64,000 nucleotides of DNA from an uncultured Syntrophobacteraceae bacterium. Lineage in GTDB: Bacteria > Desulfobacterota > Binatia > UBA9968. A program made the position numbers and the translations under genes. The first letter of the stretch is position 1; each line of letters begins with the position of its first letter. Where the stretch lies: contig CAYOJC010000002.1 in the NCBI GenBank assembly GCA_964404195.1, forward strand, positions 38,886-102,885, written 5' to 3'. This document shows positions 19,162 through 35,900 of the stretch, in pieces. The notes under the pieces were generated by a model. That model had not been told where the DNA came from and did not search any database. It saw only the letters and a program-made list of their open reading frames with translations.

Positions 19162-19273
19162 CTGGAAAAGCTAACGACCGGGAAAAATCTCCGCAGGTAT
19201 GAAGAGGGAGTTAGAAAACCGATTCCGTGTGCAGGGAGCGCAGGTCGCCGCTTGATGACCCGTCGGTCGGGGA

Positions 19274-19289
19274 GGCCTCCAGCTGGAGG
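19274..19289. repeat. perfect 16-bp palindrome GCCTCCAGCTGGAGGC
   Basis: Self-complementary 16-mer in the non-coding stretch upstream of the truncated thiolase. Confidence 0.5.
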
Positions 19290-19712
19290 CTAGCATTATT
19301 CCTATGAATTTTCCTGCCCTCGTCGCCACGGACAGAACCACCACCATTTCGTTTTCCTAGGGGCCTCTGAGGGAAGAATGGACGGGGTATGATCGTGATT
19401 TGTCGATAGATCCTCCATCGAGCGGAATGTATCCGGCAAAAATTCACGGCCCTCCAATAACGTGCTAGATACCAACCCAAACCACCAGGGGATCCTCGCG
19501 GATTCGTTTTTTCTTTTCAACTGTTGCTCCGCAATGCGTCTTCAAATGTGAGAAGAGCTGTGAAAAGATTAACTCAACGTTTCCATGCCTGTCAACAGGT
19601 CTTCATTAGCATCCGGCTGTCGGCACGTTAAGCATTTGATTTTACAAAGACAGAAGGTAAGGTGCTTCACCGGAAGTTTGATTGTTGTCGTGATCCAACT
19701 GTACTACCCCAC

Positions 19713-19805
19713 TTAATTTTGGATAGGTTGTTTCTTGTTCTTGACGATCCATTCCGCATAGAACTCGGCTGGTAAGCGCATCTCCAGGGCGCTGTGGGGG
19801 GGGCT
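19713..19805 (-). mobile_element. remnant of DDE transposase C-terminus (IS3/IS481-like ...PHSAL..LPAEF...)
   Basis: Reverse-strand reading gives ...SPPHSALEMRLPAEFYAEWIVKNKKQPIQN*, resembling the conserved C-terminal RPHSxLgxxTPxEF tail of integrase-core transposases. There is no upstream catalytic domain, and local GC is low. Confidence 0.4.
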
Positions 19806-20029
19806 TGCTGATTGTAGTGTTCGATCCACTGCGGCACTTGGCATCTCACCACCGCTAATGTATCCAGGCATGGCTAATAAACGTAGTCTCTCTTGAAGCT
19901 CCCGAAGAACACCTCCGCCAGCTTCTGCTCGGCAGGCCACCGACGCTTCCGACCACCTCATTTATACCTGTCCGAATCCTAAGTGGAGCACGACAAGAGC
20001 AAACCGGACCGAATTCCCATGCCACGGGG

Positions 20030-20470
20030 CTATTTCCTGGGCGAACCCTGATCGTGAAGGACAGGGGAAATCGAAGATTCATACTCAACGAGCCCAGCAA
20101 GTTTACTCAGGGTCTGATCTGTAGGTCTTCTACTTTTGCCCTGCTCTAGCTTCGCCAAGGTGCTTTCATTAAGGCCGGTAAGTGTCGCCGCCTGCTTCCG
20201 CGATAGACCGAGGAGCTTCCGGCCAGCCTTCAAGCTTTCGGCTAATGATTTGCCGGCAACGATAGGTTTATATCCGACGAACCTTAAGATTTTTGGCACG
20301 TGCCGGTTGGGTGGTCGGGTTGCATGGCGCTCCCAGTTGTAAATGGTTGCCTCGGACACTCCGATTTGCTCCGCAGCTTGTCTTTGGAACAGCCCGAGAT
20401 CGAGTCTCCGCTTGCGAATATAGTCGCCTAATGTCTTGAGTTCACGAGGATATTGGGGATGCTTGGGTTT
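20030..20470 (-). pseudogene. tandem HTH (XRE-type) transcriptional regulator lacking a canonical start, likely 5'-truncated
   Basis: Two HTH_XRE domains (LGDYIRKRRLDLGLFQRQAAEQIGVSEATIYNWERH and LKAGRKLLGLSRKQAATLTGLNESTLAKLEQGK). The open frame runs from a TGA near 20480, but the first ATG/GTG/TTG is the GTG at 20359, inside the first HTH. Confidence 0.5.
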
Positions 20471-20506
20471 TTGTCCGGTTAGGGTCAGGTGGCAAAAAGG
20501 TAACGC

Positions 20507-20985
20507 ATCCCTGCCCGTGCGGATTTTTTACCGACCCGCAAAAAGAATGCGGCTGCACGCCGCCGCAGATCCAGCGCTATCGCTCCAAAGTTTCCGGCCC
20601 GCTGCTCGACCGCATCGACATTCAAGTCGAAGTTCCGGCGCTGCGCTATCAGGAGCTTGCGAGCAAAGACGCGGGCGAGCCGTCTTCAGCCATTCGTCAG
20701 AGAGTCAATGCCGCGCGTCAAATCCAGCTCGCGCGCTTTCAAAAAAGAAATCTGCACGCCAACGCGCAGATGGGCACGAGAGACATCAAGAAATATTGCG
20801 CCGTGAAGCCGGAAGCGGAAAAACTTCTCGAAGTCGCGATCAATAAACTAGGACTCAGCGCCCGCGCCTACAGCCGCGTCCTCAAAGTCAGCCGCACCAT
20901 CGCCGATCTGGAAGGCTCCGAAGACATCCAGCCGTCGCACGTGTCAGAAGCGATTCAATATCGGAGTTTGGATCGGAGATTGTAG
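20507..20985 (+). pseudogene. comM: comM/yifB (Mg-chelatase-like ATPase) 3' fragment, 5'-truncated
   Basis: Reads HPCPCGFFTDPQKECGCTPPQIQRYRSKVSGPLLDRIDIQVEVP...LGLSARAYSRVLKVSRTIADLEGSEDIQPSHVSEAIQYRSLDRRL*, the zinc-ribbon and C-terminal blocks of ComM/YifB. The N-terminal two thirds or so, with the ATPase domain, is missing. Confidence 0.75.
20857..20915. repeat. direct repeat (left copy) of comM 3' coding segment
   Basis: gcctacagccgcgtcctcaaagtcagccgcaccatcgccgatctggaaggctccgaaga matches 35774-35832 with 2 mismatches, with weaker similarity flanking it. Confidence 0.8.
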
Positions 20986-21033
20986 TCAGCGCTCCCCTGC
21001 CACGTACTGAGTTTACTGGGATAATTCGGACGC

Positions 21034-21745
21034 TCAAGTTTTTGGGTCTCTAAGGCTCATCCTCACGAAGCGCGCGAACCATCCGACAATGTCGGGAAAC
21101 CGCCAGGCGAAGAAAAATAAATAAACTGGCACCAGAAGAAAGAAGAGCACAACCGACGTGGTGATGCCGATAACGCGGCCCAACACGCCGAAAAAGCGGC
21201 CCGTCCCCGTAAACAGCGTCTGAAACGTGGGGATGGGATCCTTCCTGATCGCTTCGCCTACCTTCGCGATCTGCGCGGGCAGATCGCCCATGCGAAGATC
21301 GGTATTGTTTGGATAAGCGATCGATATAGCCGGGGAGATTTTGTACGAAACTGACCGCCTGCCTCGCCAAAATCGGACCAAGCCACGCGACCATAACGAT
21401 CGCGGTTACAGCAAAAATGACCAGGAGCAGCAACCTAGTCATTAGCCACGGCATACGCCAATGGCGCTCGGCCCAGTCGATCACCGGGTCAAAAAGATAG
21501 GCCAGACCGAGGCTGATGAGAATCGGCGCAAAGACGTCGCGCAGATAATAGACCAGAAAGAGTGCGACGACTGCGAGAGTAAGCGAGAAAAGGTCCCGGA
21601 CCGCGGTGATTTCCCAGAGATGGCGATCATGGCCGGACTCTTCCTCCAGGCAATCGCCACCGGGGATTCTTTTTCCCCTTCTATTCACGACTGGAGCGGA
21701 CGAGCTCACCGGCCTGGAGCGCTCTGGCTTGCTCACGCGAGGCAT
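21034..21745 (-). pseudogene. AI-2E family transporter (PerM/TqsA-like), frameshifted and C-terminally truncated
   Basis: Track ORFs 21050-21745 and 21034-21381 together carry AI-2E blocks (LFLVYYLRDVFAPILISLGLAYLFDPVIDWAER; FFGVLGRVIGITTSVVLFFLLVPVYLFFFAWRFPDIVGWFARFV) but in two frames. The C-terminal ~120 aa is absent. Confidence 0.55.
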
Positions 21746-21839
21746 AGATCTGACAGCGTTGCTGGGGCGGCTTCAGCCCCTTGTCGTCCACGTTCCCCCG
21801 GTGCATCTCCATTTCGGCGGCGACCTGTGTAAACCTATC

Positions 21840-22325
21840 CTAACGCAGTCTGTCCCGAGGCGGCTGCTGGTTTTCGGTGCTACGGCGACGCGGTGGCGGC
21901 TGAACGCCCGTGCCACAAACATTAACCATTTCGCCTCCAAGCCATCCGGAAACGGCGAGAAGAATAACCCCAAGGATCGAGAGCGCAATAGGAAGAGGAT
22001 CTCCAGGAAGACTGGTCGCGCGGCGATATAAATTGACGGTGAAGATCGCGATGACCATAAAATTTAGAATCAAGTGATACACGCCGATCTTCCAAACTTT
22101 AGAATCGGAAGTCGATAGTAAGTCGAAAAATCCAGGTATCGCCGCCAAAAGAGCGCCAACCAATCCGCCCGCCATCGTGTAGAAGGCGAGATCATTCCAT
22201 AGGGTTGTTCTTAAACCCGTAACTAAAACGAGATCGTTGATAAGAGAAAAAATCCATAAACCGATGGGAAAGACCACCAACATCGGATGGATCGGATGCT
22301 TAGCAATGGCCGCGGCAGTGCTCAC
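21840..22325 (-). CDS. DUF2231-type integral membrane protein
   Basis: 161 aa with 4 predicted TM segments and an N-terminal HPIHPMLVVFPIGL motif. Confidence 0.55.
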   Translation of the reverse strand: MSTAAAIAKHPIHPMLVVFPIGLWIFSLINDLVLVTGLRTTLWNDLAFYTMAGGLVGALLAAIPGFFDLLSTSDSKVWKIGVYHLILNFMVIAIFTVNLYRRATSLPGDPLPIALSILGVILLAVSGWLGGEMVNVCGTGVQPPPRRRSTENQQPPRDRLR

Positions 22326-22407
22326 AGCGATCTTCTTTTATGCATTATAGAGCTAAGAGCCGACGGTGGGAGCTTTAGGCTCCCACCGCTTGGCCTTCCG
22401 CACCCGG

Positions 22408-22533
22408 CTATTCCTTTCCTTGCTGCCGACCTGGGCAGGCTCTTTCGTGCTCACGAAGCTCGCTTTCCGATTTAAAGGTCTTGCCGCACGAGCTACACTT
22501 TAGCTGATCCTCTTGGGGATTCTCCTTTGCCAT
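22408..22533 (-). CDS. 41-aa C2HC zinc-finger/zinc-ribbon small protein
   Basis: MAKENPQEDQLKCSSCGKTFKSESELREHERACPGRQQGKE, with AGGAGGTGA 6 nt upstream of the ATG. The upstream part of track ORF 22408-22653 lacks a Shine-Dalgarno. Confidence 0.45.
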   Translation of the reverse strand: MAKENPQEDQLKCSSCGKTFKSESELREHERACPGRQQGKE

Positions 22534-22609
22534 GCTATTCACCTCCTTTCCTGATGAATTGAATTTAGACGTTTCAGGTTTCATGAACGAGTAAGACGGC
22601 CCCATATCT

Positions 22610-23074
22610 TCAATATGGTTTCTCACCGTAAAAGGAATGAATCTCAGATCCATACTTACGGTCGGCCAGATTCGGCCAATTATTATTATCGAAGCCCGGA
22701 GCCATTTTGAGTCGCTCTTTAGCCACGTTAAGTACTAAGACATCCTTGTCACGATCCATTCTCAAAGCTTTCCAAGGCACGGCAAAGAGCTTATCACCCA
22801 TTCCCAAAAAGCCTCCGAAAGAAACGACCGCATAAGCGATGCGGGCTTGTTCTGGATCGATCACAAGTTCTTTGATTTCCCCCAGATTCTCTCCTTCGGG
22901 ATTCTTTACATTTTTGCCGATTAAATTACTGGCCTTTAATACGCCAGGTTCTTTTCCGCTAGATAAGTTTTGTTGCTTTGCTTTCTTCTCCTGTCCACCA
23001 CCAGGTCCAACTGTCACAAGAGAGCTAAAACCCAGCATCAAAATCAATGCCAGTATTTTCCCCATATTTTTCAT
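22610..23074 (-). CDS. PRC-barrel domain protein, secreted
   Basis: Signal peptide MKNMGKILALILMLGFSSLVTVG and AGGAGG 5 nt upstream. PRC-barrel block GKNVKNPEGENLGEIKELVIDPEQARIAYAVVSFGGFLGMGDKLFAVPW. Confidence 0.65.
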   Translation of the reverse strand: MKNMGKILALILMLGFSSLVTVGPGGGQEKKAKQQNLSSGKEPGVLKASNLIGKNVKNPEGENLGEIKELVIDPEQARIAYAVVSFGGFLGMGDKLFAVPWKALRMDRDKDVLVLNVAKERLKMAPGFDNNNWPNLADRKYGSEIHSFYGEKPY

Positions 23075-23517
23075 AAAATCCTCCTTTAAGGCTGACCAAA
23101 ATAGAATTCGGACTTGCATTTACCGGGTGCTCGCATCGGGTGGCGCTCGTTGGTGGTTATTCCTTTGGATATCCTCCATCACGAGTTGTTAGAGCAATGC
23201 TTATGCCAAAAGGTGTTTATCTGTACCTTTGCATTTTCATCCTTCCCTTCTATCGGGCTACTTTCGACGGGATATATATTTGACCGATCCGCAAAGGATG
23301 CGCCAACGAGAAGCTTGACTGACAAAATACCAGCCTTCACTTCTTCATTGCCTCTGCAGGCTTCATCTTTTTCTCTGATATCTTTGTTGTCGCTCGCGTA
23401 AAGATAAGGAGCGCGACCGGTTTGTTGCAAAATTTGTATCGCCAAGGAGACAAGCGTATCGATGGTTGGACAATTTGGCGGGGATACGAAAAGGCGATGC
23501 GCCGCTTGGTTCGTGCA

Positions 23518-23715
23518 CTAAAAAAGATTGAAAATGCCGACGCGCGGTGTCCGGATATATAAACAGAGGAGACTGGCTAACGCTTTAGGAAGAATTACAA
23601 GCGGGAGTAAGTAAGCAGGAGCTCGAGCGGCAATCCGCGCCAGAAAAAGGAGTACCAAGGAAAACATGCCAAACGATGAATCAATGAGTGTTACGACGTT
23701 AATGAGGGCACGCAT
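23518..23715 (-). CDS. hypothetical 65-aa two-TM membrane peptide
   Basis: MRALINVVTLIDSSFGMFSLVLLFLARIAARAPAYLLPLVILPKALASLLCLYIRTPRVGIFNLF, with AAGGTG 6 nt upstream. AT-rich codons and no homology recognised. Confidence 0.3.
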   Translation of the reverse strand: MRALINVVTLIDSSFGMFSLVLLFLARIAARAPAYLLPLVILPKALASLLCLYIRTPRVGIFNLF

Positions 23716-23826
23716 AAGTGACACCTTGCGATGATCGAAACGACAACAGAAATGGTAGGTTGCAACTGTTCCGCGCAGGACAAAGTATATTCTGCACCTG
23801 GTTGCACGAATAGGTGAATTCCCTTA

Positions 23827-23855
23827 TTGACAACTACCATATCTCTTAGTAAAAA
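23827..23855 (+). promoter_or_regulatory. candidate sigma-70 promoter for the kinase gene (TTGACA-N17-TAAAAA)
   Basis: Perfect -35 hexamer TTGACA at 23827-23832 and a weak -10 at 23850-23855, about 30 nt upstream of the ATG at 23885. Confidence 0.3.
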
Positions 23856-23884
23856 GTGTCTTTGCTGACGGAGGAAATGGAGAG

Positions 23885-26689
23885 ATGAAACACGGAACCA
23901 TGGAGCGGAAAATTCAGGTCGCACAGCATCGCCTGGAATCTTTGTGGCAACGTATCCAGAAATCGCCCGAACCACAGAAAGAGTTATTTGCGGAGACCCT
24001 TCAAGAACTCGGCCTAGCTCTCGAAGAACTACAACTATCCCAAGAGGAGTTGCGCCAGCGGAACAAAGAACTGGCCAGCACATCCCAGGCGTTGGCTAGA
24101 GAGCGACAGCATTATACCGAGTTGTCGGACCACGCCCCGGACGGCTACTTGGTGACAGACCCCGAGGGAGTCATCCGCGAGGCTAATCGCGCCGCAGGGG
24201 CCCTGCTCCAGGTGCGCCACAAGTTTCTCATCGGCAAACCACTCTCCCTCTATGTCGCCGCAGAACAGCGCAAGGACCTTTGTGACCTGCTGACCCGCTT
24301 GTCCCAGAAAAAGGAAAAGGAAGTAAGGGAGTGGGGGATGCTTATGGCGCCGCGTGAAGGCCCGCCCTTCCCTGCCGCGGTGACTATCACTACGATCCAC
24401 GACGGTCAATCCGATTGGTCTTCTGAATCCTTAACGGGCTCATTGATCGGCCTGCGCTGGCTTGTACGTGACATCACAAATCGTGTCGTTCAGACAGAGA
24501 ACGTGCGGCGCCAGAGCGAGGAGCAATTCCGCTTGCTAGTAGAGGGATTCAAAGACTATGCCATCTTCATGTTAGATCCCGAGGGAGTTATCGTCAGTTG
24601 GAACACGGGGGCGGAACGGATCAAGGGTTATCGGCCAGAAGAAATCCTTGGCAAGCACTTTTCCTGTTTTTATTCCCCGCAAGACATGGAGCTCGGCAAG
24701 CCCCAACGAGGCCTAGAGGCAGCTGCCGCCGAAGGCCGGTTTGCAGATGAGGGCTGGCGTTTACGCAAGGACGGATCCCTTTTCTGGGCCAGCGTCGTCA
24801 TAACGGCATTGCGAGACGAGTCGGGAAGCCTACGCGGCTTCTCAAAAGTCACGCGCGATATCACAGAGCGGAAGAATACCGAGGATAAATTGCGTAGGCA
24901 AGCAGAGCTTTTGGATCTGGTCCATGATGCGATCATCGTAAGAGACCTGGAGAACAGGGTTGTCTTTTGGAACTCCGCCGCGCAGCAAACCTACGGCTGG
25001 ACAGCTGATGAAGCGCTGGGGAAAGAGGTTCACATTTTACTCCAAACAGTATTCCCTCAGCCTTTAGAAATCATCAAGGCTACAGTTCTTCGAAATGGAA
25101 GTTGGGAAGGTGAAGTGATCCACACCCGACGCGACGGCGAACGTATCGTCGTGGAAAGCTGTTGGGTATTGCAGAAGAGCCGAGATGGCTTCCCGATAGC
25201 GATTCTAACCATCAATAGGGATATCTCCGATCGTAAGCGGGCCGAGAAACAAATTCGAGAGAATCTCCACCGCATCACCGCCCTGCGTGATATCAACGTT
25301 GCCATTACGTCAACTCTGGATCTGCAATCGGTGCTGAGCCTTTTGCTGGAGAAACTCGAAGACTTTTTTCCCTATCCGACAGCGATGACGGTCAGGTTAT
25401 TCAACCGGGAAACCGGCGAGCTGGAGCGTTTATTCTGCCGGAATATCGACCCGGCGGAATGGAAAGCCGGCGCACAAAGCTCACCCGGCGGTCGGGACCA
25501 AGAGGCGATCCGGATTAAGGCTCCTGTGGTCGTCCGTAATGTTCAACTCGACCCGCGCTCCCACAGACCCGACTTCTACAGCCGCATGGGCCTGGTATCT
25601 TCTCTTGCCGTTCTGTTGAGCGTTAAGGAAGACGTCCGGGGAATCCTGTCCTTATACACCCGGGAGGAACACGAATTCAGTGGAGAAGAAATCGAGTTCC
25701 TTTCTTCCCTGGCAGTTCAGGCGGCCATAGCCATTCACAACACCCGGCTCTACGAGCAGCTCATAAAACAGGCGGTCGAACTGGAGAGAGCCCACGACGA
25801 GTTGGAAGAGCGAGTGCGTGAGCGAACGTTTGAGCTGGCCAGGACAAACGACGCTCTCAAGACCGAGATCTCGGAACGCAAGCGGGTCGAGGAGCAACTG
25901 CGCGAGAGCGAGCGTCAATTGAGCAATCTCGCCAAAGGTTTGGAGCAGCAGCTCATCGCCTCGGACCGGCTGGTTTCGGTCGGCGAGCTGGCGGCGTCGA
26001 TCGCCCATGAATTCAACAACCCGCTGCAGATCATCCTGGGCTTTACACAGGAGGTTCTCAGTGAGCTGAACCCCGCTCAACCTCACTACGAAATCTTAAA
26101 GATTGTTGAGACGGCAACCCACCGATGCGGGGAGATTATTAGAAATCTCTTGGATTTTGCCCGTCCGGACCATGATCTATCATTGTCGGTGGTTGAACCT
26201 ATCATCCGGAACAGTATTAAATTAACTCTCGCCCACCTGGAGAAGTCAAAAATCAAAGTCGAGATCGATGCCCAGCCTGATCTACCCGAGATTTACGCAA
26301 ACCCTACCCAACTGCAACAGGTGTTGATAAATCTCTTTTTTAACGCCGCAGATGCAATGCCCAAAGGCGGGACGCTGACTATTCGGGCGGCGGCTAATCC
26401 TGCGTCCTCGGTCCAGGCTGATGAAAACCGCGAGGCAAGTCGCCAGGAGTTGACTATTGCGGTGTCTGATACGGGCACGGGTATACATCGCGAGGCGCTG
26501 CCTAACATCTTCCGCCCTTTCTTCACTACGAAGAAAAAGAAAGGTATGGGGCTGGGACTATCAATCTGCGAACGGATCATGAAGTCCCATGGCGGCAGAG
26601 TCACCGTGGACAGCGCGCGGGGGAAAGGCACCACCTTCTATCTTCATTTCCCTATGATGGAGGCAAGAGACTATGGACGAGCCTCATGA
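23885..26689 (+). CDS. cytoplasmic multi-PAS/GAF sensor histidine kinase
   Basis: 934 aa with no TM segments. It has three PAS-like blocks, a GAF-like region and a coiled coil, then HisKA (SIAHEFNNPL, His present) and HATPase_c (N, DTGTGI, GMGLGL boxes). Confidence 0.9.
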   Translation: MKHGTMERKIQVAQHRLESLWQRIQKSPEPQKELFAETLQELGLALEELQLSQEELRQRNKELASTSQALARERQHYTELSDHAPDGYLVTDPEGVIREANRAAGALLQVRHKFLIGKPLSLYVAAEQRKDLCDLLTRLSQKKEKEVREWGMLMAPREGPPFPAAVTITTIHDGQSDWSSESLTGSLIGLRWLVRDITNRVVQTENVRRQSEEQFRLLVEGFKDYAIFMLDPEGVIVSWNTGAERIKGYRPEEILGKHFSCFYSPQDMELGKPQRGLEAAAAEGRFADEGWRLRKDGSLFWASVVITALRDESGSLRGFSKVTRDITERKNTEDKLRRQAELLDLVHDAIIVRDLENRVVFWNSAAQQTYGWTADEALGKEVHILLQTVFPQPLEIIKATVLRNGSWEGEVIHTRRDGERIVVESCWVLQKSRDGFPIAILTINRDISDRKRAEKQIRENLHRITALRDINVAITSTLDLQSVLSLLLEKLEDFFPYPTAMTVRLFNRETGELERLFCRNIDPAEWKAGAQSSPGGRDQEAIRIKAPVVVRNVQLDPRSHRPDFYSRMGLVSSLAVLLSVKEDVRGILSLYTREEHEFSGEEIEFLSSLAVQAAIAIHNTRLYEQLIKQAVELERAHDELEERVRERTFELARTNDALKTEISERKRVEEQLRESERQLSNLAKGLEQQLIASDRLVSVGELAASIAHEFNNPLQIILGFTQEVLSELNPAQPHYEILKIVETATHRCGEIIRNLLDFARPDHDLSLSVVEPIIRNSIKLTLAHLEKSKIKVEIDAQPDLPEIYANPTQLQQVLINLFFNAADAMPKGGTLTIRAAANPASSVQADENREASRQELTIAVSDTGTGIHREALPNIFRPFFTTKKKKGMGLGLSICERIMKSHGGRVTVDSARGKGTTFYLHFPMMEARDYGRAS

Positions 26690-28034: not shown

Positions 28035-28055
28035 TCGACCGACCTGGAACGCGGC

Positions 28056-29391: not shown

Positions 29392-29405
29392 CCCACCGGT
29401 AACGC

Positions 29406-29765
29406 ATGGACAACAAGTCGCAACACGCCTCTGAGCCGAGCATAGTAGCTCTGCTTGGAGGCATTATTAACGATGCCAAGAGTTTGCTGGCACTAGGAAT
29501 GGCGCTGGGAAAGCTAGAAGTGCAGGACCAACTGCGCAAAGGCAAAACCGCCGCGATAACACTGGGCATCGCGATAGGGATTGTCGCGGTCGGTGGACTG
29601 TTGCTGATGCACATGCTTGTCCAGGCGCTGGCGGCATTCACGGAGATTCCACTCTGGGGGTGCTTCGGCATAGTTGGAACCGCGCTTGTCGCTATCGGCG
29701 GGGTGCTGCTCGCCATCGGCAAAACCAAAGCAGAGGAACTCGACGTGGTGCCCCAACAACGGTAG
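29406..29765 (+). CDS. YqjE-like (DUF1469 / holin-X superfamily) inner-membrane protein
   Basis: 119 aa with two TM helices (AAITLGIAIGIVAVGGLLLMHMLV, WGCFGIVGTALVAIGGVLLAIG). It has the classic position between two DUF883 genes, as in yqjD-yqjE. Confidence 0.6.
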   Translation: MDNKSQHASEPSIVALLGGIINDAKSLLALGMALGKLEVQDQLRKGKTAAITLGIAIGIVAVGGLLLMHMLVQALAAFTEIPLWGCFGIVGTALVAIGGVLLAIGKTKAEELDVVPQQR

Positions 29766-29787
29766 AGACAATGAAGGAGAATGCGCA

Positions 29788-30324
29788 ATGGCTCGCAAGG
29801 CGGACGACATCCGACAAGACATAAAAGGCACCCGCCAAGACATCCACGACACCCGTTTGGCAATGACGGAGAAGCTAGAAATGATGGAAGAGCGTGCACG
29901 GCAGACCATTGAAGGCGTACAATCATCGGTGGAAGATATCGTGCAGAAAGTGAAAGGGACGGTGGACACGACCGTCGAAGGGGTGAAGCGTAACTTTGAT
30001 CTACGCTATCAAGTGGACCGGCATCCGTGGCTAGTGTTTGGCGGGTCACTCGTCGTGGGCTATATGCTCGGAAGCCGGCGTGGCGGCCGAATGTCTTCTT
30101 CTTTCTCCACAAATGGTGCAGCGTTCTCTCTCAAAATCATAGTCGTTGGCGCTGTGATGAGCACGCTGCGGGAAATGCTCAAGCGGGCCCTGCTGGCGCC
30201 AGCCGCACAAGTCAATAACGCAATGACCAAGCCGGGGCGTCAGCCCATCGATAGGCCGGAGCAGAATCCGGCACCAATTTCCAGTTCAAAAGTAAAAGGA
30301 CAACCAATTCGGATAGAGCCTTGA
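29788..30324 (+). CDS. DUF883 (YqjD/ElaB/YgaM-like) ribosome- and membrane-associated stress protein
   Basis: Start MARKADDIRQDI with AAGGAGA 7 nt upstream. Coiled-coil N-terminus and a DRHPWLVFGGSLVVGYMLGSRRGG anchor motif. Confidence 0.6.
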   Translation: MARKADDIRQDIKGTRQDIHDTRLAMTEKLEMMEERARQTIEGVQSSVEDIVQKVKGTVDTTVEGVKRNFDLRYQVDRHPWLVFGGSLVVGYMLGSRRGGRMSSSFSTNGAAFSLKIIVVGAVMSTLREMLKRALLAPAAQVNNAMTKPGRQPIDRPEQNPAPISSSKVKGQPIRIEP

Positions 30325-30440
30325 GGGTGAAAACCTCTCGCGGGTGAAGCAGACAGAGAATCAAAAACGTTACCGGTTGGTTCGACGACTCTTAGGAAGG
30401 CGAAAGCTTTCTCGAACCCGAGACGCGTGGAAGGAGAGTT

Positions 30441-30551
30441 ATGCAGTTTTTTAAAGAAGAGAAAGGTAAGATCGGTTGGATCCTGCTATGGGCGATAGGA
30501 GTGCCCATACCTGTGTTAGTCGTTTTCTTTCTGTTGCGTGGTTGCACGTAA
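30441..30551 (+). CDS. 36-aa single-TM small protein
   Basis: MQFFKEEKGKIGWILLWAIGVPIPVLVVFFLLRGCT with GGAAGGAGAG directly upstream. Not in the ORF track. Confidence 0.4.
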   Translation: MQFFKEEKGKIGWILLWAIGVPIPVLVVFFLLRGCT

Positions 30552-30601
30552 CGGAAACGATTGGCCTTAGTTAAAAGAAAGCCAGATAGAAGGAGGTACG
30601 T

Positions 30602-30910
30602 ATGCGGCAGGTATTAAAGTCTTTTGTAGTTATGGTGTTGATTCTCTCGCTCGCTGGCTGCCAAGCTATGACAGGCAGAACCGCCGGGCAGAACATTGAT
30701 GATGCCGCCATTACGGCTTCAGTGAAGTCAAAACTTGCGGCGGATAAGATTTCGAGTCTCACACGGGTGGACGTCGATACCACCAGCGGCACCGTTTACC
30801 TAAACGGTGTAGTCGAATCTGCTGATCAGAAGGCACGGGCCGGGCAACTCGCATCGCAGGCAAGCGGCGTCAATAACGTAGTCAATAACCTTCAAGTCCA
30901 AAAAAAATAG
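30602..30910 (+). CDS. BON-domain lipoprotein (OsmY-like)
   Basis: Lipobox LSLAGC and BON pattern AAITASVKSKLAADKISSLTRVDVDTTSGTVYLNGVVESADQKARAGQLASQASGV. GAAGGAGG is upstream. Confidence 0.75.
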   Translation: MRQVLKSFVVMVLILSLAGCQAMTGRTAGQNIDDAAITASVKSKLAADKISSLTRVDVDTTSGTVYLNGVVESADQKARAGQLASQASGVNNVVNNLQVQKK

Positions 30911-30971
30911 CACGACTTCAGTTAATTTTTGGGCCAGCAGGCTACTGGCATTTTTCGTTAAGTGGTACGGC

Positions 30972-30977
30972 TTATAA
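30972..30977 (+). promoter_or_regulatory. candidate -10 box (TATAAT) upstream of the catalase gene
   Basis: Perfect TATAAT about 66 nt upstream of the katE ATG, with no convincing -35. This is compatible with an RpoS-type promoter but unproven. Confidence 0.25.
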
Positions 30978-31043
30978 TGTTAGCCCAAAATGCACAGAGA
31001 CTCTCGCTTGAGACCCACAATAAGTTAGAAAAAGAGGATTTCA

Positions 31044-33227
31044 ATGGGTAAAGGCAAACAGAAAGACAATAATGACAAGGTAAATGACTTGGCGAGATTT
31101 CGTGAAGACGGCTCGGGGGAATACCTCACCACTAATCAGGGTTTACGCATTAATGACGATCAGAACTCACTCAAAGGAGGCTCTCGCGGGCCGTCGTTAT
31201 TGGAAGATTTCATCCTCCGTGAGAAAATCACGCACTTCGACCACGAACGCATTCCCGAACGGGTCGTTCACGCGCGCGGCGCGGCGGCTCACGGTTATTT
31301 CCAAGTATACAAATCCCTGGCCCCCTACACAAAAGCCAAGTTTCTCCAAGACCCGTCAGTCAAGACGCCGGTCTTCGTGCGCTTCTCTACCGTAGTCGGG
31401 TCGCGTGGTTCAACCGACCTGGCGCGTGATGTGCGCGGATTCGCCGTTAAGTTCTATACCGAAGAGGGCAACTATGATCTGGTCGGCAATAACATTCCCG
31501 TTTTCTTCATTCAAGACGCGGTCAAATTTCCCGATCTTATCCATGCCGTCAAGCCGGAACCGCAACACGAAATGCCCCAGGCGGCGTCAGCGCACGACAC
31601 CTTCTGGGACTTCATTTCATTGATGCCGGAAACCATGCACATGATTATGTGGGTGATGTCCGATCGCGCCATTCCGCGAAGTTTCCGCATGATGGAAGGC
31701 TTCGGCGTCCACACGTTCCGCTTCATCAATGAAAAAGGCAAAGCGCGTTTTGTAAAGTTTCACTGGAAGCCCCTACTTGGCGTTCACTCGGTGGTTTGGG
31801 ATGAAGCGCAGAAGATTTCCGGTCAAGACCCGGACTTTCTCCGACGCGACCTGTGGGAAGCAATCGAGAACGGCGATTATCCTGAATGGGAATTCGGCGT
31901 CCAGATCATTGAGGAAGAGGACGAGCACAAGTTCGACTTCGATTTGCTAGACGCAACTAAAATCATTCCTGAGGAATTGGTTCCCGTCAAACGCATCGGC
32001 AAGTTGACCCTTAACCGCAACCCCGACAACTTTTTCGCCGAGACGGAGCAGGTCGCTTTTCATCCGGGCCACATTGTGCCCGGAATTGACTTCACTAATG
32101 ATCCGCTCCTGCAGGGCCGGCTTTTCTCTTATACGGATACGCAACTGATTCGCTTGGGCGGCCCCAACTTTCACGAGATTCCGATCAACCGTCCCTTGGC
32201 GCCCGTTCACAACAATCAACGCGACGCCCATATGCGTCAAACGATCAATCGCGGCCGCGTCAGTTATCAGCCGAATTCGATTGGCGGGGGCTGTCCCATG
32301 CAATCGAAAGAAAGCACGGGCGGCTTTGTCAGCTACGCCGAACATATTGACGCCCCGAAGGTTCGGGAGCGGAGTGAAAGGTTCTTCGATCATTTCAGCC
32401 AGGCGGCGCTTTTTTGGAACAGTCAATCCGATCCGGAGAAAGAACATATCGTGCAGGCCTTGCGGTTCGAATTAGGCAAGGTGGAAGTCACAGACATCAG
32501 AAAACGGATGGTCGGAATGCTTGCTCATGTTGACAAAACTTTGGCCAGCCGTGTCGCCCAAGGTCTCGGCATCAGCGTCGCAGGGAAGCTGGACACTCCT
32601 TTGAACATGAGTGTGCCGGCAGACGGCAATGTAAAGCAGTTTCAACCAAAGCCAGCAAATACATCAATCGGCAACTCGCCTGCCCTGAGTATGGCGAACA
32701 CCGTCAAGGACAGCATCAAAACCCGCAAGGTAGCCGTCCTCACCGCTGACGGATTCGATGACTCCGCTCTTTCCAACATGAAGCAAGCGTTGACGGCAGC
32801 CGGAGGCCAGGCCAAGGTCGTCGCACCGAGACTCGGATTTTTGACGAGCGCGAAGGGCGCTGAAGTCAAAATAGATTTCAGTTTGCTCACAGCCAGTTCA
32901 GTCATGTTCGATGCTGTTTATATCCCTGGAGGAGAAAAGAGCGTTGAAGCTCTCAAGAGTGAGGCTTCCGCTCTCCACTTCGTTAAAGAGGCGTACAAAC
33001 ATTGCAAGACGATTGCTGCAAGCGGCGCAGGGATCGAGTTAGTACGCGCGCCTTATGTCGGCGCGGACACGGCCAAGAATGACGCCGAAGGAAATCAACT
33101 CATTGCAGAAGAGGGAGTCATCATCGGTCACGACGCTCAAGCTGCAAAAGTTGCGTCGGAATTCATCAAAGCTATCGCTCGACATCGCCATTGGAGCCGA
33201 GAGATGAAAGGCCAAGTGCCAGCTTGA
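31044..33227 (+). CDS. katE: large-subunit monofunctional catalase, HPII type, with C-terminal DJ-1/PfpI-like domain
   Basis: 727 aa with catalase core motifs ([30 protein letters not shown], heme-ligand Tyr region) and a class-I glutamine-amidotransferase-like C-terminal extension. Confidence 0.95.
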
Positions 33228-33313
33228 TCCCTCGTCGCAAATGGCCAGTCGGAAAAACGTCGTCGGATTCGGAAAAAGGTCATGAAGCATCATAACATTA
33301 ACAGGAGGGGACA

Positions 33314-33907
33314 ATGAAAACGGATCAGTTGATTCAGCTTCTTTATGAGGCATTAGAAACCGAGATGGGCGGTGTGAAGGTCTATGAGACGGCAATACGC
33401 TGCGCCGTGAACGAGGACCTCAAAGAAGAGTGGAAAAAATACCTGGATCAGACCCGTAGGCATGAAGAAATCCTCCGGGAACTTTTGGGAAAGTTACAGC
33501 TGGACCCCGAGTTGGAAACTCCAGGACGCCACGTCGTGCGTCATATCGGAGAGTCGCTGGTGAAGGCTATGGATATGGCGCTGGTATCCGGCAAGCCCGA
33601 AGCCGCCCAAATAGTCGCTGCCGAGTGCGTGGTCGAAGCTGAGACCAAGGACCACTTGAACTGGGAGCTGATTGGCGAGGTAGCCAAAAAAATCAAAGGA
33701 GAAAAGGGGAAAGCCCTGAAGGAGGCCCACGAGCAGGTGGAGCCAGAGGAGGACGAGCACCTCTATCATACTACGGGCTGGAGCCGGGAATTGTGGATCC
33801 AGTCCCTGGGCTTGCCCGCTGTAATTCCTCCGCCAGAGGAAGAAAAGGATGTTAAGTCAGCAATCGGCGCTGCTCGCGCCAAGCAGAGTCGCACGGAAAT
33901 GCTGTAA
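33314..33907 (+). CDS. ferritin-like/rubrerythrin-like domain protein
   Basis: 197 aa with paired E...E..H-type helices (LYEALETEMGGVKVYE, EEDEHLYHTTGW). AGGAGGGG is upstream. The family call is tentative. Confidence 0.45.
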   Translation: MKTDQLIQLLYEALETEMGGVKVYETAIRCAVNEDLKEEWKKYLDQTRRHEEILRELLGKLQLDPELETPGRHVVRHIGESLVKAMDMALVSGKPEAAQIVAAECVVEAETKDHLNWELIGEVAKKIKGEKGKALKEAHEQVEPEEDEHLYHTTGWSRELWIQSLGLPAVIPPPEEEKDVKSAIGAARAKQSRTEML

Positions 33908-34023
33908 GGTTCGGCGCGCGTTTGTTATAGACAACTGCAGGCTTTTCGTGTTCGCTTGTCTTTGAGAAGCTGGCATAAGATGGCGTTTTAAAGTCCCATG
34001 ACAGGTATGAAAGGAGATATTAT

Positions 34024-34305
34024 ATGGAAACTGATACAAAGAGCCCGACCAGTCGATCGAGCCCGACCGAGGACGAATTCACAAAAAATGTGGAGAAGTA
34101 CACAGCGCAGATACCTTCTTCCGCGTTTCTCGGCGTCGCCATTGGCTCAATGGCGCTTTCACTCGCGTTCCAGTTGATGGGACGGGGCAAGTGGGGAAAT
34201 TTCATTGCGCAATGGGTTCCTACATGGCTAATCATCGGGGTGTACAACAAACTGGTGAAGCTCGAAGGGCATGATCATATCGATACACCAAGGAGGTCTT
34301 TCTAG
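34024..34305 (+). CDS. hypothetical small membrane protein
   Basis: 93 aa with AAAGGAGA upstream and two hydrophobic helices. Confidence 0.5.
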   Translation: METDTKSPTSRSSPTEDEFTKNVEKYTAQIPSSAFLGVAIGSMALSLAFQLMGRGKWGNFIAQWVPTWLIIGVYNKLVKLEGHDHIDTPRRSF

Positions 34306-34562
34306 TGGGTATTATAGGATGGATTCTGTTTGGACTTGTCGTTGGGATTGTGGCCAAGTTCATGACGCCGGGCCGTGATCCAGGGGGATTCGTTGTTACC
34401 ATTCTTCTGGGAATCGCGGGAGCGCTTGCCGGCGGTTTCATCGGCCGCGCTCTCGGCATATTTGGAGAAGGCGACCCGGTCGGTTTTGCAATGGCCGTCA
34501 TCGGGTCGATTGTATTGCTCCTACTTTACCGGCTCGTAGCAGGCCGCCGTCGGTTTGCGTAA
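34305..34562 (+). CDS. GlsB/YeaQ/YmgE family stress-response membrane protein (transglycosylase-associated)
   Basis: MGIIGWILFGLVVGIVAKFMTPGRDPGGFVVTILLGIAGALAGGFIG is the canonical family signature. GTG start with AGGAGG upstream. Confidence 0.85.
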   Translation: MGIIGWILFGLVVGIVAKFMTPGRDPGGFVVTILLGIAGALAGGFIGRALGIFGEGDPVGFAMAVIGSIVLLLLYRLVAGRRRFA

Positions 34563-34781
34563 GGATCGGCTCGCTTTCTTTGCTAGGGAAGGTGGACAAG
34601 CGATCCCTACAGCGGAACGTTGAACAATCGCCTGGTAAAAAGTATCAGTTCGAGAAGACGACCGCTCTATCTTTTATCTAGCGTTGCTAGCGATAGGGTG
34701 TACCAGCGACGGATCTAAAAGTGATCCTCGCCGTGAACCGCCGACGTTGGTCGGCGCTGGTCAGCCTCGCTCGAACCACAC

Positions 34782-34829
34782 AAGTTTCTCCAAGACCTGT
34801 CAGTCAAGACGCCGGTCTTCGTGCGCTTC
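34782..34829. repeat. 48-nt direct repeat of an internal katE coding segment (copy of 31338-31385, 47/48 identical)
   Basis: aagtttctccaagacc[c/t]gtcagtcaagacgccggtcttcgtgcgcttc occurs inside katE and again 3.4 kb downstream in non-coding DNA. Weaker similarity continues for about 15 nt more. Confidence 0.8.
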
Positions 34830-34922
34830 GCGACTGTCGTTGACTTGCCCCCCTAAATTTGGACCATTGCGAAAGTAAGCCCTCCAGACCTTGTTTAAGC
34901 ACGCCTTGGCAAGGCCCCATTT

Positions 34923-34940
34923 TAGACTATATAAAGTCTA
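34923..34940. promoter_or_regulatory. 18-bp perfect palindrome TAGACTATATAAAGTCTA abutting the antitoxin start codon
   Basis: Inverted repeat TAGACT/AGTCTA around a TATATAAA core, 1 nt before the ATG at 34942. This is typical of an autoregulated TA operator/promoter with a leaderless transcript. Confidence 0.45.
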
Positions 34941-34941
34941 T

Positions 34942-35220
34942 ATGAAGACTCTGACAACCACTGACGCGAAAAAAAACCTCAGCCGCTGGCTGAGCGCCGC
35001 AGCCCGTGGCGAAGATGTCGGTATCGTCTGTGGGGCGGATATTATAGCCCTGCGTAAAGTGGAGGTGGAATCAACCGACTACGCCCAGCGCGAATATGCG
35101 GCGACCCCCGATCAGGTAGCGGCTTTGGAAAAAGCTACGGACGCACGTTACCGGAAGCTCAAGCGCTCTGGAAAACTCGTCACCGTCACGGCTGAACAAC
35201 TGGGAAAATTGCTAGCCTAA
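34942..35220 (+). CDS. Phd/YefM-like type II antitoxin
   Basis: MKTLTTTDAKKNLSRWLSAAARGEDVGIVCGADIIALRKVE matches the Phd/YefM N-terminal fold consensus. It lies immediately upstream of the toxin-like gene. Confidence 0.5.
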   Translation: MKTLTTTDAKKNLSRWLSAAARGEDVGIVCGADIIALRKVEVESTDYAQREYAATPDQVAALEKATDARYRKLKRSGKLVTVTAEQLGKLLA

Positions 35221-35242
35221 GCTTCTCTCCATCGACCCCGGC

Positions 35243-35503
35243 GTGTTCCGACGGCTGCGAGATCTGCCCAAAAGCGAAAGAGTAGAGTGCCTGTTGGCGT
35301 TGTGCGACTTGGCTGAAAGCTTCGGACGACCTCACGTCCACAGCGGCCTTGGCATTCGCAAATTGGGCAATAAGCTGTTTGAATGTCGCGGAAGTATTGC
35401 ATTGCGTTTCATCTTCCAAGACCGTCCGACCGATCTTTTCGTCTCATTCTTAGGCAACCACGATGAAATCAAAGCGTTGCTGAGAGGCGGGAAATATCGC
35501 TAA
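35243..35503 (+). CDS. RelE/ParE-superfamily toxin-like protein (HigB/Gp49-like)
   Basis: ...LPKSERVECLLALCDLAESFGRPHVHSGLGIRKLGNKLFECRGSIALRFIFQDRPTDLFVSFLGNHDEIKAL fits the RelE-fold pattern (k.L.g..lyElR..g..R.i...d..l.vl.lg.gkHd). GTG start. Confidence 0.45.
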   Translation: MFRRLRDLPKSERVECLLALCDLAESFGRPHVHSGLGIRKLGNKLFECRGSIALRFIFQDRPTDLFVSFLGNHDEIKALLRGGKYR

Positions 35504-35756
35504 CCCTGATCGCTGACCTGGCAGGCTCCAAAGAAATCCAGGCTGTAGCCATCGTGGATACATGAGTCTTTTTTATCATGTAAAAACGACTTTGCAAGGC
35601 CGATTTGATGATCTACAGCCCGGCCGGCAGAACGACTCCTAATTCGAATTTCCCGGCAATGGCAGCGCCTATCTCAAATTGAGGATCGGCTGCGGAACGG
35701 TTGATCCAAAACTCAAATTTGACCCGAGCCTTGATTAGCCGGGCGGCACTTGCAGA

Positions 35757-35870
35757 ACCGCGGGGTTGATTCGATCCGCCCGAGCCTACAGCCGCGTCCT
35801 CAAAGTCGCCCGCACCATCGCCGATCTGGAAGGCTCCGAAGAAATCCGTCCGGTTCAAATCTCCGAGGTG
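35757..35870 (+). pseudogene. comM: second, short comM/yifB 3' fragment (about 38 codons, no stop, runs antisense into lpxD)
   Basis: GLIRSARAYSRVLKVARTIADLEGSEEIRPVQISEVIFGY is homologous to the C-terminus of the left comM fragment. The core 35774-35832 is the right copy of the direct repeat. Confidence 0.7.
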
Positions 35871-35900
35871 ATATTTGGATATGGGCAACCAAAGCTGCCC

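Follow-up and report, generated by a model that had tools for sequence, protein, structure and literature searches.

An island at the 3' end of comM in Candidatus Binatia, a genuine but ordinary example of a known island type

Introduction

Why do pieces of one gene, comM/yifB, stand on both sides of a block of stress genes in a genome of Candidatus Binatia, and why is the larger piece without its 5' part? The window (the whole stretch of DNA that was analysed, 64,000 nucleotides) was described in an earlier note, which read the block as an integrated and decayed element. In one island catalogue, comM/yifB is listed among the targets of integrative elements whose integrases are of the tyrosine and serine types, and yifB also stands there among the genes targeted by large-serine-recombinase elements (PMC7192596). 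A 95-kb comM island is present in Acidithiobacillus ferrooxidans (PMC10322971). At ssrA of Dehalococcoides, tandem islands are bounded by repeats of the target 3' end (PMC3146451).

Results

comM pieces and their repeats

The comM/yifB 3' part (codons 349-507 and stop) was located at 20509-20985 on the forward strand (Pfam Mg_chelatase_C, 6e-36). It comprises the C-terminal 158 codons and the stop, matching residues 349-507 of the intact 507-aa ComM of Binatia; the 5' 348 codons lie outside the window. The earlier note had correctly recognised a C-terminal part of comM, but its fragment of about 159 codons at 20507-20985 was off frame by two bases. In amino acids the fragment is 100% identical to the intact ComM proteins P0257 and P0253, and it differs from the intact comM of L009 at 44 synonymous and 1 non-synonymous codons.

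A left direct repeat inside this 3' end (attL core; 20859-20954, forward strand) was aligned to a right copy adjoining lpxD (attR; 35777-35872, forward strand). Both have the same orientation and are spaced by 14,918 bp, in agreement with the 14.9 kb noted previously. Over the full length 81 of 96 positions are identical, with a longest common exact run of 33 nt. Identity drops stepwise, from 63/67 in the core (20859-20925 and 35777-35843) to 18/29 and then 3/31, and upstream of the repeat there is no similarity (6/30). A previously given core identity of 57/59 is reached at about 20866-20924, but at 20857-20915 and 35774-35832, to which it had been assigned, the copies are out of register and match at 17/59. 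The right fragment is derived from comM, as had been proposed (tblastn, 26/33 aa; nhmmer, E = 2.5e-24), but contains 32 homologous codons and not about 38. It is without the last ~10 comM codons and the stop; past its core, the native tail is decayed and carries a deletion of 11 nt.

The comM core occurs a third time, in degenerate form, at 35509-35552 (forward strand; nhmmer E = 1.7e-4, profile positions 94-137), 31/44 identical to 20899-20942 and beginning 5 nt past the stop codon of a putative toxin gene. This copy had been missed in the earlier note. It is either an inner attR or a relic of accretion. The core matches comM at 94% in the lpxD-side copy and at 70% in the inner copy, which does not fit a simple rule by which the older copy is the more decayed. 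Given the 81/96 identity, the 33-nt exact run and the nhmmer E-values of 2.5e-24 and 1.7e-4, the comM pieces are direct repeats far beyond chance. Logan contigs from two runs end within the 33-nt exact repeat.

Two candidates thus exist for the right boundary (n = 2; repeat copies at 35509-35552 and 35777-35872), and the island, between the comM end and lpxD, measures ~14.5-14.8 kb (20986 to 35508 or 35776). With two such copies, it is composite or part of a tandem array.

Relatives at the comM locus

In a near relative (L181/L182, ~95-97% identical to the window) comM is intact. The 3' 472 nt of comM in L181 are 97.5% identical to the window, and its lpxD with flank has 95.2% nucleotide identity to window 35900-36998. 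In the window, lpxD (35901-36923, reverse strand; Pfam LpxD and Hexapep) is the native right-hand flank, convergent with comM. From comM to lpxD, L181 has 6.1 kb of cargo that, unlike that of the window, is defence-like, with a low GC of 49.7%. The order is comM, HNH_5, a comM-tail copy (12625-12699), SLFN_AlbA_2, CapP, unknown genes, a comM-tail copy (17538-17621) and lpxD. The right repeat of the window has GAAGAAATCC and TTTGGATA in common with the lpxD-side copy of L181, and the third copy starts at the same comM position as copy 3 of L181. An intact comM and the same lpxD around other cargo mean that comM and lpxD are native neighbours, and they point to the comM 3' end as a recurrently used attachment site. 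This comparison supports the core of the earlier note, namely an element at the comM 3' end with tail repeats, stress cargo and no integrase. Relatives with an intact comM beside the flanking genes and no island had been expected; the intact comM is indeed beside the same lpxD, but the site is occupied by the 6.1 kb of other cargo. No relative with an empty comM-lpxD site was recovered; in L181 other cargo fills it.

Between the window and L181, comM differs at 8 positions in its final 60 nt and at 8 in the 419 nt before them (Fisher p = 2e-4); every difference is synonymous or lies within the stop codon, and no amino acid is changed. Such excess divergence would be expected of a tail that came with the island (a hybrid attL). 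The crossover zone would then be at ~20899-20939, and the tail 20940-20985 would be island-supplied.

Repeats of the comM tail also flank integrase-less inserts in L014, L009, L044, L048 and L082. The insert of L014 (4.7 kb) carries homologues of the ferritin-like (79%) and 93-aa (68%) genes of the island, that of L009 measures 0.95 kb, and that of L048 is DarT/DarG-like as judged from sequence inspection alone. In other phyla, too, unrelated cassettes are enclosed by repeats in this arrangement. The island itself is constant across samples (L169-L178, 98-99% identical).

A domain scan found no integrase in any window ORF scanned, bearing out the view that none survives, and neither integrase nor excisionase was detected in the island or in the 7 other inserts bounded by comM-tail repeats. 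Since no integrase was found in any of these inserts, we infer site-specific integration at the comM 3' end from architecture only.

Composition and cargo

The island has 52.4% GC (46-57% per kb) and the flanks 57-60%; it is thus lower in GC as described before, but the flanks do not reach the ~65% then given. GC3 is 0.57 in the island against 0.73 in the flanks (Mann-Whitney p = 2.6e-7) and changes abruptly at both boundaries, with 0.42-0.53 in effector operon 1 and 0.75 in lpxD.

Domain search agreed with the cargo described previously (kinase, catalase, small stress proteins and an isolated lpxD), and the cargo is predicted to be a sigma-54-type two-component system with stress effectors. 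Effector operon 1 (21840-23119, reverse strand) encodes a PRC-barrel protein (9e-17), a small C2H2 zinc-finger protein (zf-C2H2, 5e-5, below cut-off) and a DUF2231 membrane protein (5e-31). Upstream of it is a sigma-54 (-24/-12)-like site, TGGCATAAGCATTGCT (23193-23208, reverse strand; 10/11 specified bases). A cytoplasmic sensor histidine kinase follows on the forward strand (23885-26689; three PAS domains, GAF, HisKA and HATPase_c by domain search), and then an NtrC-type response regulator (26673-28034, forward strand) with REC (Response_reg, 3e-32), sigma-54 AAA+ (Sigma54_activat, 6e-71) and Fis-type HTH (HTH_8, 1e-14) domains. A second site, TGGCATAGGAATTGCG (28166-28181, forward strand; 9/11 specified bases), precedes the first ORF of effector operon 2 by 38 nt. 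Over the window as a whole, sites of this type show no enrichment (3 found, 1.55 expected), and TGGCATAAGCATTGCT and TGGCATAGGAATTGCG are suggestive only.

Effector operon(s) 2 (28219-34562, forward strand) were recognised by domain search; their gene order recurs, 98-99% identical, in L169-L174, six contigs from JGI metagenomes. They start with a small Zn-ribbon ORF, a CsbD-like protein, a holin-X-like membrane protein, a 178-aa helical protein and a BON lipoprotein. A large-subunit catalase (31044-33227), a ferritin-like 197-aa protein, a 93-aa membrane protein and a Transgly_assoc (GlsB/YeaQ-type) protein make up the rest. A 60-nt relic of a second catalase gene (34781-34840, forward strand) is 92% identical to katE 31337-31396. 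At the right end of the island, two small adjacent genes of 109 and 86 aa (34891-35503, forward strand) form a putative toxin-antitoxin pair. The 109-aa gene has a sub-threshold N-terminal match to Phd/YefM as its only hit (E = 0.01), and the 86-aa gene gave no match in Pfam, NCBIfam, PADLOC, PHROGs or PDB; the AlphaFold model was too low in confidence for use (pLDDT 63).

Left edge and the break in comM

The gene debris at the left edge was for the most part as described in the earlier note. A thiolase pseudogene (18829-19161, reverse strand) is an N-terminal fragment only (Pfam Thiolase_N positions 3-76/260, 1e-17) and runs directly into an intact hbd (17898-18827; full-length 3HCDH_N and 3HCDH matches). 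The transposase tail (19667-19961, reverse strand) is a probable, frameshifted C-terminal relic of a DDE (rve-type) enzyme, with the motifs WIEHYNQQ and PPHSALEMRLPAEF in two different frames; its rve_3 match at ~19667-19852 is weak (E = 0.024, positions 42-58/67). The broken AI-2E family transporter gene (21034-21745, reverse strand) is frameshifted and matches Pfam AI-2E_transport at positions 3-105/327 only. Its 3' part is cut off, 49 nt from the comM stop, and the gene is in the same state in other samples (L176-L178). As this gene is cut at the left boundary, at least one junction was reshaped by deletion.

Next to comM lies an XRE-family gene with two HTH domains (20030-20503, reverse strand; HTH_3 4e-20, HTH_31 4e-17), without a start as reported before, with TTA in the window where relatives have TTG. 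The earlier note had taken this gene and the 5'-less comM as decay after integration. Alignments of intact comM with left and right junctions show instead that both belong to an attR junction (20498-20513) formed by another element, unrelated to the island, with a large serine recombinase. The element arm ends in ...GGTAACGC, ATCCCTG (20507-20513) is common to the junction and intact comM, and inverted-repeat half-sites (GGCAACGC and GCGTTGCC) lie on either side of a short shared core. The break at codon 348/349 is precise and common to several Binatia. An XRE-HTH homologue adjoins every truncated comM (L003, L005-8, L010, L045, L054), with a full length of 145 aa in L010, starting MPFCH, and is absent at loci with intact comM. 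L179 has the left junction: there, a comM 5' fragment of 350 aa adjoins a 498-aa Resolvase+Recombinase protein. Many comM N-terminal fragments are of exactly 350 aa. Only the attR end, with its terminal XRE-HTH gene, is in the window; the comM 5' half and the recombinase, if not lost, must lie 20.5 kb or more away.

Discussion

An integrative island at the comM 3' end, with a second, serine-recombinase element at codon 348/349, is the probable explanation of the locus as a whole. The order of events, like the recombinase type at the 3' site and the sigma-54 regulation of the cargo, is a matter of reconstruction. The last ~40 codons of comM, a convergent neighbour of lpxD, would serve as attachment site for integrative islands. 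An island of ~14.5-14.8 kb would have recombined into this site, with the crossover at ~20899-20939, and supplied its own synonymous replacement of the comM tail. The native tail would have been displaced to the lpxD side, where it now decays (35777-35872); this requires the 11-nt deletion and later divergence. The degenerate copy at 35509-35552 marks the block as composite or the site as repeatedly used (tandem accretion). The recombinase gene is lost, probably by the same deletion as the AI-2E 3' end, which would leave an immobile att-flanked element resembling a CIME. The PAS/GAF kinase and the NtrC-type activator would drive both flanking effector operons. Independently, a large-serine-recombinase element would have inserted at comM codon 348/349.

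Alternatively, homologous recombination in the conserved flanks (e.g. after natural transformation) could have swapped what lies between comM and lpxD; the repeats would then be relics of much older integrations and would not have brought in the stress genes. The flanks of the window and L181 are highly conserved around wholly different content, no island has an integrase, and the lpxD-side copy looks ancestral because of derived bases common to L181. We nevertheless regard this as rather unlikely: the excess divergence is restricted to the last 60 nt of comM, which fits a crossover in the core and not in the flank, a repeat copy lies 5 nt after the last island gene, and the same architecture surrounds unrelated cassettes in other phyla.

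That the left comM fragment is not resident but moves together with the XRE-HTH end of the second element, its pairing with the right fragment being coincidental debris of separate events, is very improbable. The window piece is 97.5% identical to the intact, syntenic comM of L181 beside the same lpxD, and truncated pieces track the intact comM of their own lineage and form no clade (identity is 99% to L009 and 61-92% to other truncated copies). With L009, the window has DNA homology in the comM fragment only, as a travelling piece would have it, and MAG GCA_001798595.1 has two contigs in which the HTH-comM' unit is flanked on either side by different DNA; MAG bins, however, are often strain-mixed. 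It is scarcely credible that there is no island at all, and that native stress genes owe their low GC to function or expression while the comM-like pieces are chance or slippage debris. Other bacteria (L175) do have similar stress clusters (ferritin-like, catalase, DUF3618, YflT) as part of the chromosome, and Na/H exchanger and Usp genes right of lpxD are likewise low in GC3. Yet L181 has other genes at exactly the same locus, which contradicts this reading, the repeats are statistically overwhelming and GC3 changes abruptly at both boundaries.

The integrative island preferred here has the target, terminal direct repeats, foreign composition and strain-variable content of other comM/yifB islands (TIGER/Islander catalogue, PMC7192596; A. 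ferrooxidans iMGE6, PMC10322971). It differs in the lack of an integrase, in the extreme 3' site with a replacement tail and in its uncultured Binatia host. In the Rhodococcus erythropolis Rer1.59 element and a Salmonella ST35 prophage, as given in the same catalogue, the crossover is in the 5' or middle part of comM, unlike here (PMC7192596). The Dehalococcoides ssrA islands are similar in their serial low-GC islands past a conserved gene, 3'-end repeats and strain-specific occupants (PMC3146451). Here the target is protein-coding, and the repeats are 44-96 nt against 20 bp there; at the left edge, the Dehalococcoides islands still carry a CcrB-type serine recombinase module, and this one has none.

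CIMEs are cis-mobilisable remnants of ICEs or islands, att-flanked and without recombination or transfer genes (streptococcal ICESt1/ICESt3). The present island resembles them in the att-like repeats on both sides, the lack of an integrase/transfer module and the signs of accretion (an internal repeat copy), but its repeats are partly decayed, so that mobilisation may have become impossible. Host genes such as sigK, spsM and comK are split by large-serine-recombinase elements ('regulated gene integrity'). The second element is like these in its precise, recurrent mid-gene comM junction and in the Resolvase+Recombinase protein at the other junction (L179), although only its attR end is in the window. 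AbaR/Tn6022-type Tn7-like transposons also interrupt comM, in Acinetobacter. Membership of this type was rejected: there is no tnsABC/tniQ and no short target-site duplication, and the junctions are those of site-specific recombination.

The island is thus a genuine yet ordinary example of a known island type, at a comM 3' hotspot in Candidatus Binatia. By comparison of the loci, comM and lpxD are native neighbours in the host lineage, and the space between them is a hotspot of variable content.

The comM-tail repeats and the block between them

The left comM fragment (20509-20985) corresponds to the C-terminal 158 codons and stop of ComM/YifB (Mg_chelatase_C, 6e-36 in Pfam), also takes in the end of the Mg_chelatase AAA+ domain, and aligns with residues 349-507 of an intact 507-aa Binatia ComM. 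The earlier note had recognised this C-terminus but quoted a reading frame two bases off. The right fragment (35777-35872) is also comM-derived (26/33 amino acids identical), with neither the comM stop nor the last ~10 codons, and comprises 32 codons rather than the ~38 first counted. As the note had proposed, the fragments lie in the same orientation ~14.9 kb apart and are direct repeats, with a spacing of 14,918 bp. Alignment of 20859-20954 with 35777-35872 gave 81/96 identical positions, a core of 63/67 and a longest exact run of 33 nt; upstream of the repeat there is no similarity (6/30), and downstream identity is 18/29, then 3/31. A core of 57/59 identities, claimed previously, was reached ~9 nt to the right, the coordinates as written being out of register (17/59).

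A profile of Binatia comM tails matched both copies (E = 1.8e-53 and 2.5e-24) and a third on the same strand at 35509-35552 (E = 1.7e-4), which starts 5 nt past the stop of the last island gene. The two rightmost copies are the two candidates for the right boundary of the island. The k-mer assemblies of two runs break within the 33-nt exact repeat; the Logan contigs L001 and L002 end within it, at the equivalent of window position 35813.

The block 20986-35776 has a GC content of 52.4% (46-57% per kb), against 57-60% in the flanks; the contrast described earlier was recovered, although with flanks below the ~65% then given. Mean GC3 was 0.57 for 17 island genes and 0.73 for 30 flank genes (Mann-Whitney p = 2.6e-7), and is again 0.75 in lpxD, immediately right of the island. 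A fluoride riboswitch (37084-37145, plus strand; Rfam RF01734, 53.7 bits, E = 5e-12) immediately precedes a Na+/H+ exchanger-family gene; this gene and the Usp gene after it have island-like GC3 values (0.62 and 0.56), yet lie right of lpxD.

Island cargo

The minus strand carries a frameshifted, 3'-truncated AI-2E transporter gene, a DUF2231 gene, a small C2H2 zinc-finger ORF and a PRC-barrel gene. On the plus strand are two regulators, a PAS/PAS/PAS-GAF-HisKA-HATPase kinase and a REC/sigma-54 AAA+/Fis-HTH response regulator, and a series of effectors: a Zn-ribbon ORF, a CsbD-like protein, a holin-X-like membrane protein, a helical 178-aa protein, a BON lipoprotein, a large-subunit catalase, a ferritin-like 197-aa protein, a 93-aa membrane protein and a Transgly_assoc protein. 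These are followed by a 60-nt relic of a second catalase gene and two small ORFs. The relic (34781-34840) is 92% identical to an internal catalase piece (31337-31396), 1.5 kb upstream, and is also present in JGI contigs. The island arrangement is kept at 98-99% identity in contigs from other metagenomes (L169-L178). Two of these, L169 and L172, have a 150-bp insertion (7555-7704) relative to window ~35220, at the end of the antitoxin-like ORF, and are otherwise 98% identical. No recombinase domain was found in any ORF of 20986-35900, including small ORFs in gaps, which bears out the earlier statement that no integrase survives. With att sites on both sides and no recombination or transfer module, the block resembles a CIME, an att-flanked remnant of an integrative element or island.

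The two-component system is present with its histidine kinase and with a regulator that has sigma-54 interaction (AAA+) and DNA-binding domains. Scoring of the -24/-12 motif TGGCAC-N5-TTGC placed one site before the PRC operon (23193-23208, minus strand) and another 38 nt before the first effector ORF (28166-28181, plus strand). These two well-placed sites are consistent with the prediction of a self-contained sigma-54 regulon, though the count of the motif across the window was not above chance; sigma-54 control of the effector operons is likewise predicted. The last two small ORFs are labelled a putative toxin-antitoxin pair solely because the first gave a sub-threshold Phd/YefM match (E = 0.01), its only match. 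The second, the toxin candidate, matched nothing in Pfam, NCBIfam, PADLOC, PHROGs or PDB, and its single-sequence model was of low confidence (pLDDT 63) and unusable. No exact match is on record for this ORF or for hbd (17898-18827).

The same locus in a near relative

The closest public comM genes are in Candidatus Binatia MAGs, and two intact ComM proteins (P0257 and P0253) are 100% identical to the 158-aa fragment of the window. The contig that encodes P0257 (L181; a separate data set contains its near-duplicate, L182) matches the window at 97.5% identity over 20507-20978 and at 95.2% over 35900-36998 (lpxD and flank). It reads, in order, intact comM, an HNH_5 gene, a comM-tail copy (12625-12699), a Schlafen/AlbA_2 gene, a CapP-type M78 peptidase gene, unknown genes, another comM-tail copy (17538-17621) and lpxD. 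By this comparison, comM and lpxD are native convergent neighbours. The 6.1-kb insert of L181 has no shared homology with the island of the window; it is 49.7% GC with a GC3 of 0.46-0.55, against 0.76 for its comM and 0.74 for its lpxD. The comM-lpxD interval is therefore strain-variable, compositionally foreign and split by copies of the comM 3' end. Related genomes had been expected to show an intact comM beside a flanking gene and no island; the intact gene was found beside the same lpxD without this island, but the site holds a different occupant, and an empty comM-lpxD site was not found among relatives. In metagenomes, lpxD homologues were at most 73% identical among the best matches, none with comM nearby.

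The peptidase gene of L181 (14255-15031, minus strand; PADLOC 5e-56) adjoins the Schlafen/AlbA_2 and HNH_5 genes, so the island at this locus serves defence in one strain and stress response in another. Right after the stop of the third comM-tail copy of L181 and before lpxD (17622-17650) is a 20-nt comM-like piece, ACAGCCGCGTCCTCAAAATC, which hints at a yet older, heavily deleted att remnant.

Crossover and arrival of the island

Over the 479 nt of comM shared by the window and L181 there are 16 nucleotide differences and no amino-acid change, and the comM reading frame is intact through the stop at the left repeat. Eight of these differences lie within the final 60 nt (20940 onwards), and the other eight are spread over the 419 nt before that point (Fisher p = 2e-4). 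Because of this concentration the crossover was placed at ~20899-20939, an interval that is inside the 33-nt exact run and begins where the third copy and the third copy of L181 start. The comM tail now in the window would thus have been supplied by the island, as part of a hybrid attL. The abrupt left border of the repeat and the steep loss of identity beyond its right side are consistent with an attR made of an island arm, the core and the old native tail. The derived bases GAAGAAATCC and TTTGGATA occur in the lpxD-side copy of both the window and L181, which suggests that this copy is an old remnant, already in their common ancestor. Reading the right copies as displaced tails assumes small deletions, because they are without a stop codon. 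Accretion is compatible with the internal copy at 35509-35552 and with the tandem array of L181.

The main rival for how this block arrived is that homologous recombination in conserved flanking DNA exchanged the cargo. Insertion of the Campbell type, by way of an internal piece of comM, was rejected: the truncated copy should then be on the left and the complete one on the right, and the opposite is seen. The model of the earlier note, an island at the comM 3' end, is upheld by the repeats, the foreign composition and the different occupant in L181. The feature is real and of a known kind, in an unusual host and with tidy cargo.

Inserts bounded by comM tails at other loci

At other loci too, same-strand comM-tail copies close off inserts without an integrase. 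Two are from Binatia: a 4.7-kb insert (L014) that includes homologues of the island ferritin-like (79%) and 93-aa (68%) genes, and a 0.95-kb insert (L009) with two small ORFs. The others are a 0.6-kb insert with a 37-nt repeat and an ORF6N-like gene in an unclassified MAG (L044), a 1.7-kb insert with a 36-nt repeat and a DarT/DarG-like pair in a Bacteroidetes/Chlorobi-group MAG (L048), both assigned by eye from translations, and a 0.9-kb insert with a 54-nt repeat and one unknown gene in a Clostridiaceae MAG (L082). No recombinase was found in the islands of L181, L014 or L009. The inserts in L048 (829-2509), L044 (10522-11028) and L082 (10639-11169) are single cassettes with the comM stop on one side and an exact 36-54-nt tail repeat on the other; the L082 cassette gene encodes 176 aa, and its paralogue and dprA come after the second repeat. 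In L009 (11547-12491; SMAG_U4633, a Binatia MAG), an IS200/RAYT-type transposase-like ORF, judged from translation only, follows the second comM-core copy.

comM/yifB is listed as a target of integrative elements with tyrosine or serine integrases (PMC7192596), and a 95-kb comM island is described in Acidithiobacillus ferrooxidans (PMC10322971). The tandem architecture of the comM-tail inserts is the same as that of the Dehalococcoides ssrA islands (PMC3146451). It is conceivable, though improbable, that the extreme 3' end of comM is a cross-phylum, integron-like cassette platform, on which integrase-less modules are stacked and each is closed by a comM-tail copy. The modules would then be the Binatia stress regulons, the CapP defence block of L181 and the DarT/DarG-like, ORF6N-like and unknown cassettes; their movement would depend on a recombinase gene at another place in the genome, on an unrecognised recombinase family or on a mechanism tied to the role of ComM in transformation. 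Were this so, it would be wrong to regard the inserts as conventional islands in decay.

A second element splits comM

The 5' truncation of comM is an event separate from the 3'-end island. The gene is broken at one codon (348/349) in the window and in seven comparison loci (L003, L005-8, L010 and L054); the break is less clear in L045. Intact genes read ...AAMNPCPCGFF and truncated ones ...GKKAT(R/Q)ECPCGFF. A divergent XRE gene with two HTH domains adjoins every truncated comM and is absent from all intact loci. A search with the N-terminal 348 residues gave eight N-terminal comM fragments of exactly 350 aa, one of which, on a 731-kb contig, is abutted at this left junction by a 498-aa Resolvase+Recombinase protein (L179 3397-5917). 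Across the split junction, intact comM reads ...GCGATGAATCCCTG joined to CCCGTGCGG; a short core, ATCCCTG, is common to intact comM and the junctions, and is flanked by the inverted element arms GGCAACGC and GCGTTGCC. The element that split comM is, on these junctions and its protein neighbour, a putative large-serine-recombinase element, of a family that would interrupt the gene at this codon in Binatia. Among the cargo genes seen in L179 are those for an M23 peptidase, a kinase and a 2160-aa SpvB/TcdB/RHS toxin.

The window holds only the attR end, with the junction at 20498-20513. The double-HTH gene begins within a few bases of this end, and in the window it has TTA at the position of the TTG start codon of its relatives. 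The Resolvase+Recombinase gene and the 5' half of comM were not found in the window, which also lacks the genes that precede comM in L181 and in L183, a further comparison contig. Therefore, window 1-20505 either is cargo of a serine-recombinase element of >20 kb or was brought here by a later rearrangement, a reading with which the rve relic and thiolase stump would agree. The GC3 of this segment (0.69) is below that of the right flank (0.77, p = 3e-4) and overlaps the values of the native genes that precede comM in L181. The segment also contains two paralogous solute-binding protein genes (14238-15386 and 16572-17717, minus strand) on either side of an asparaginase gene, with a common 61-nt stretch at 84% identity (15206-15266 and 17540-17600). 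A UbiD/Fer2/MoCo cluster left of comM in the window resembles one right of the truncated comM in L005-7; it was rejected as evidence of rearrangement, the proteins being paralogues (36-43% identical).

Between the truncated comM of the window and the intact gene of L009 there are 44 synonymous codon differences and 1 non-synonymous. Either the serine-recombinase insertion may be recent, or the truncated gene may still be under selection. The contig L176, a MEGAHIT assembly, ends 12 nt inside the truncated comM from the serine-recombinase junction (equivalent to window 20518), and the population may be polymorphic for the element.

Other accounts of the broken comM were weighed. A Tn7-like or AbaR-type break was rejected: there are no tns genes, and a serine recombinase lies at the opposite junction. 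Beside the window junction tnsA/B/C and TniQ/TnsD were not found, only the XRE-HTH gene and the rve relic, and no tns-type genes occur in the 10 kb upstream in L045 and L054. For a prophage, IMG/VR scans with the HTH protein and the comM fragment matched nothing. The HTH gene and comM fragment could have been a free-standing two-gene mobile module, an idea that arose because the 120 best protein matches were all short fragments; most Binatia comM genes are intact, however, and the truncated copies track their own lineage. As a second mobile element, the serine-recombinase element also accounts for the left-edge "graveyard" that the earlier note had put down to decay after integration of the island.

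Significance

Current concepts are unchanged, as there are earlier descriptions of comM islands, of tandem arrays bounded by target 3' repeats and of serine-recombinase elements that split genes. Hardly any mobile elements have been described from Binatia, an uncultured lineage of soil and sediment, in which a strain-variable integration hotspot is now documented. A whole signal-to-effector module for oxidative and general stress, comprising a sensor kinase, a sigma-54 activator, a catalase, a ferritin-like protein and membrane-stress proteins, can travel as island cargo. comM is used by two recombination systems at once, at a 3'-end site and at a mid-gene serine-recombinase site, and the mid-gene split bears on a possible on/off switching of natural competence.
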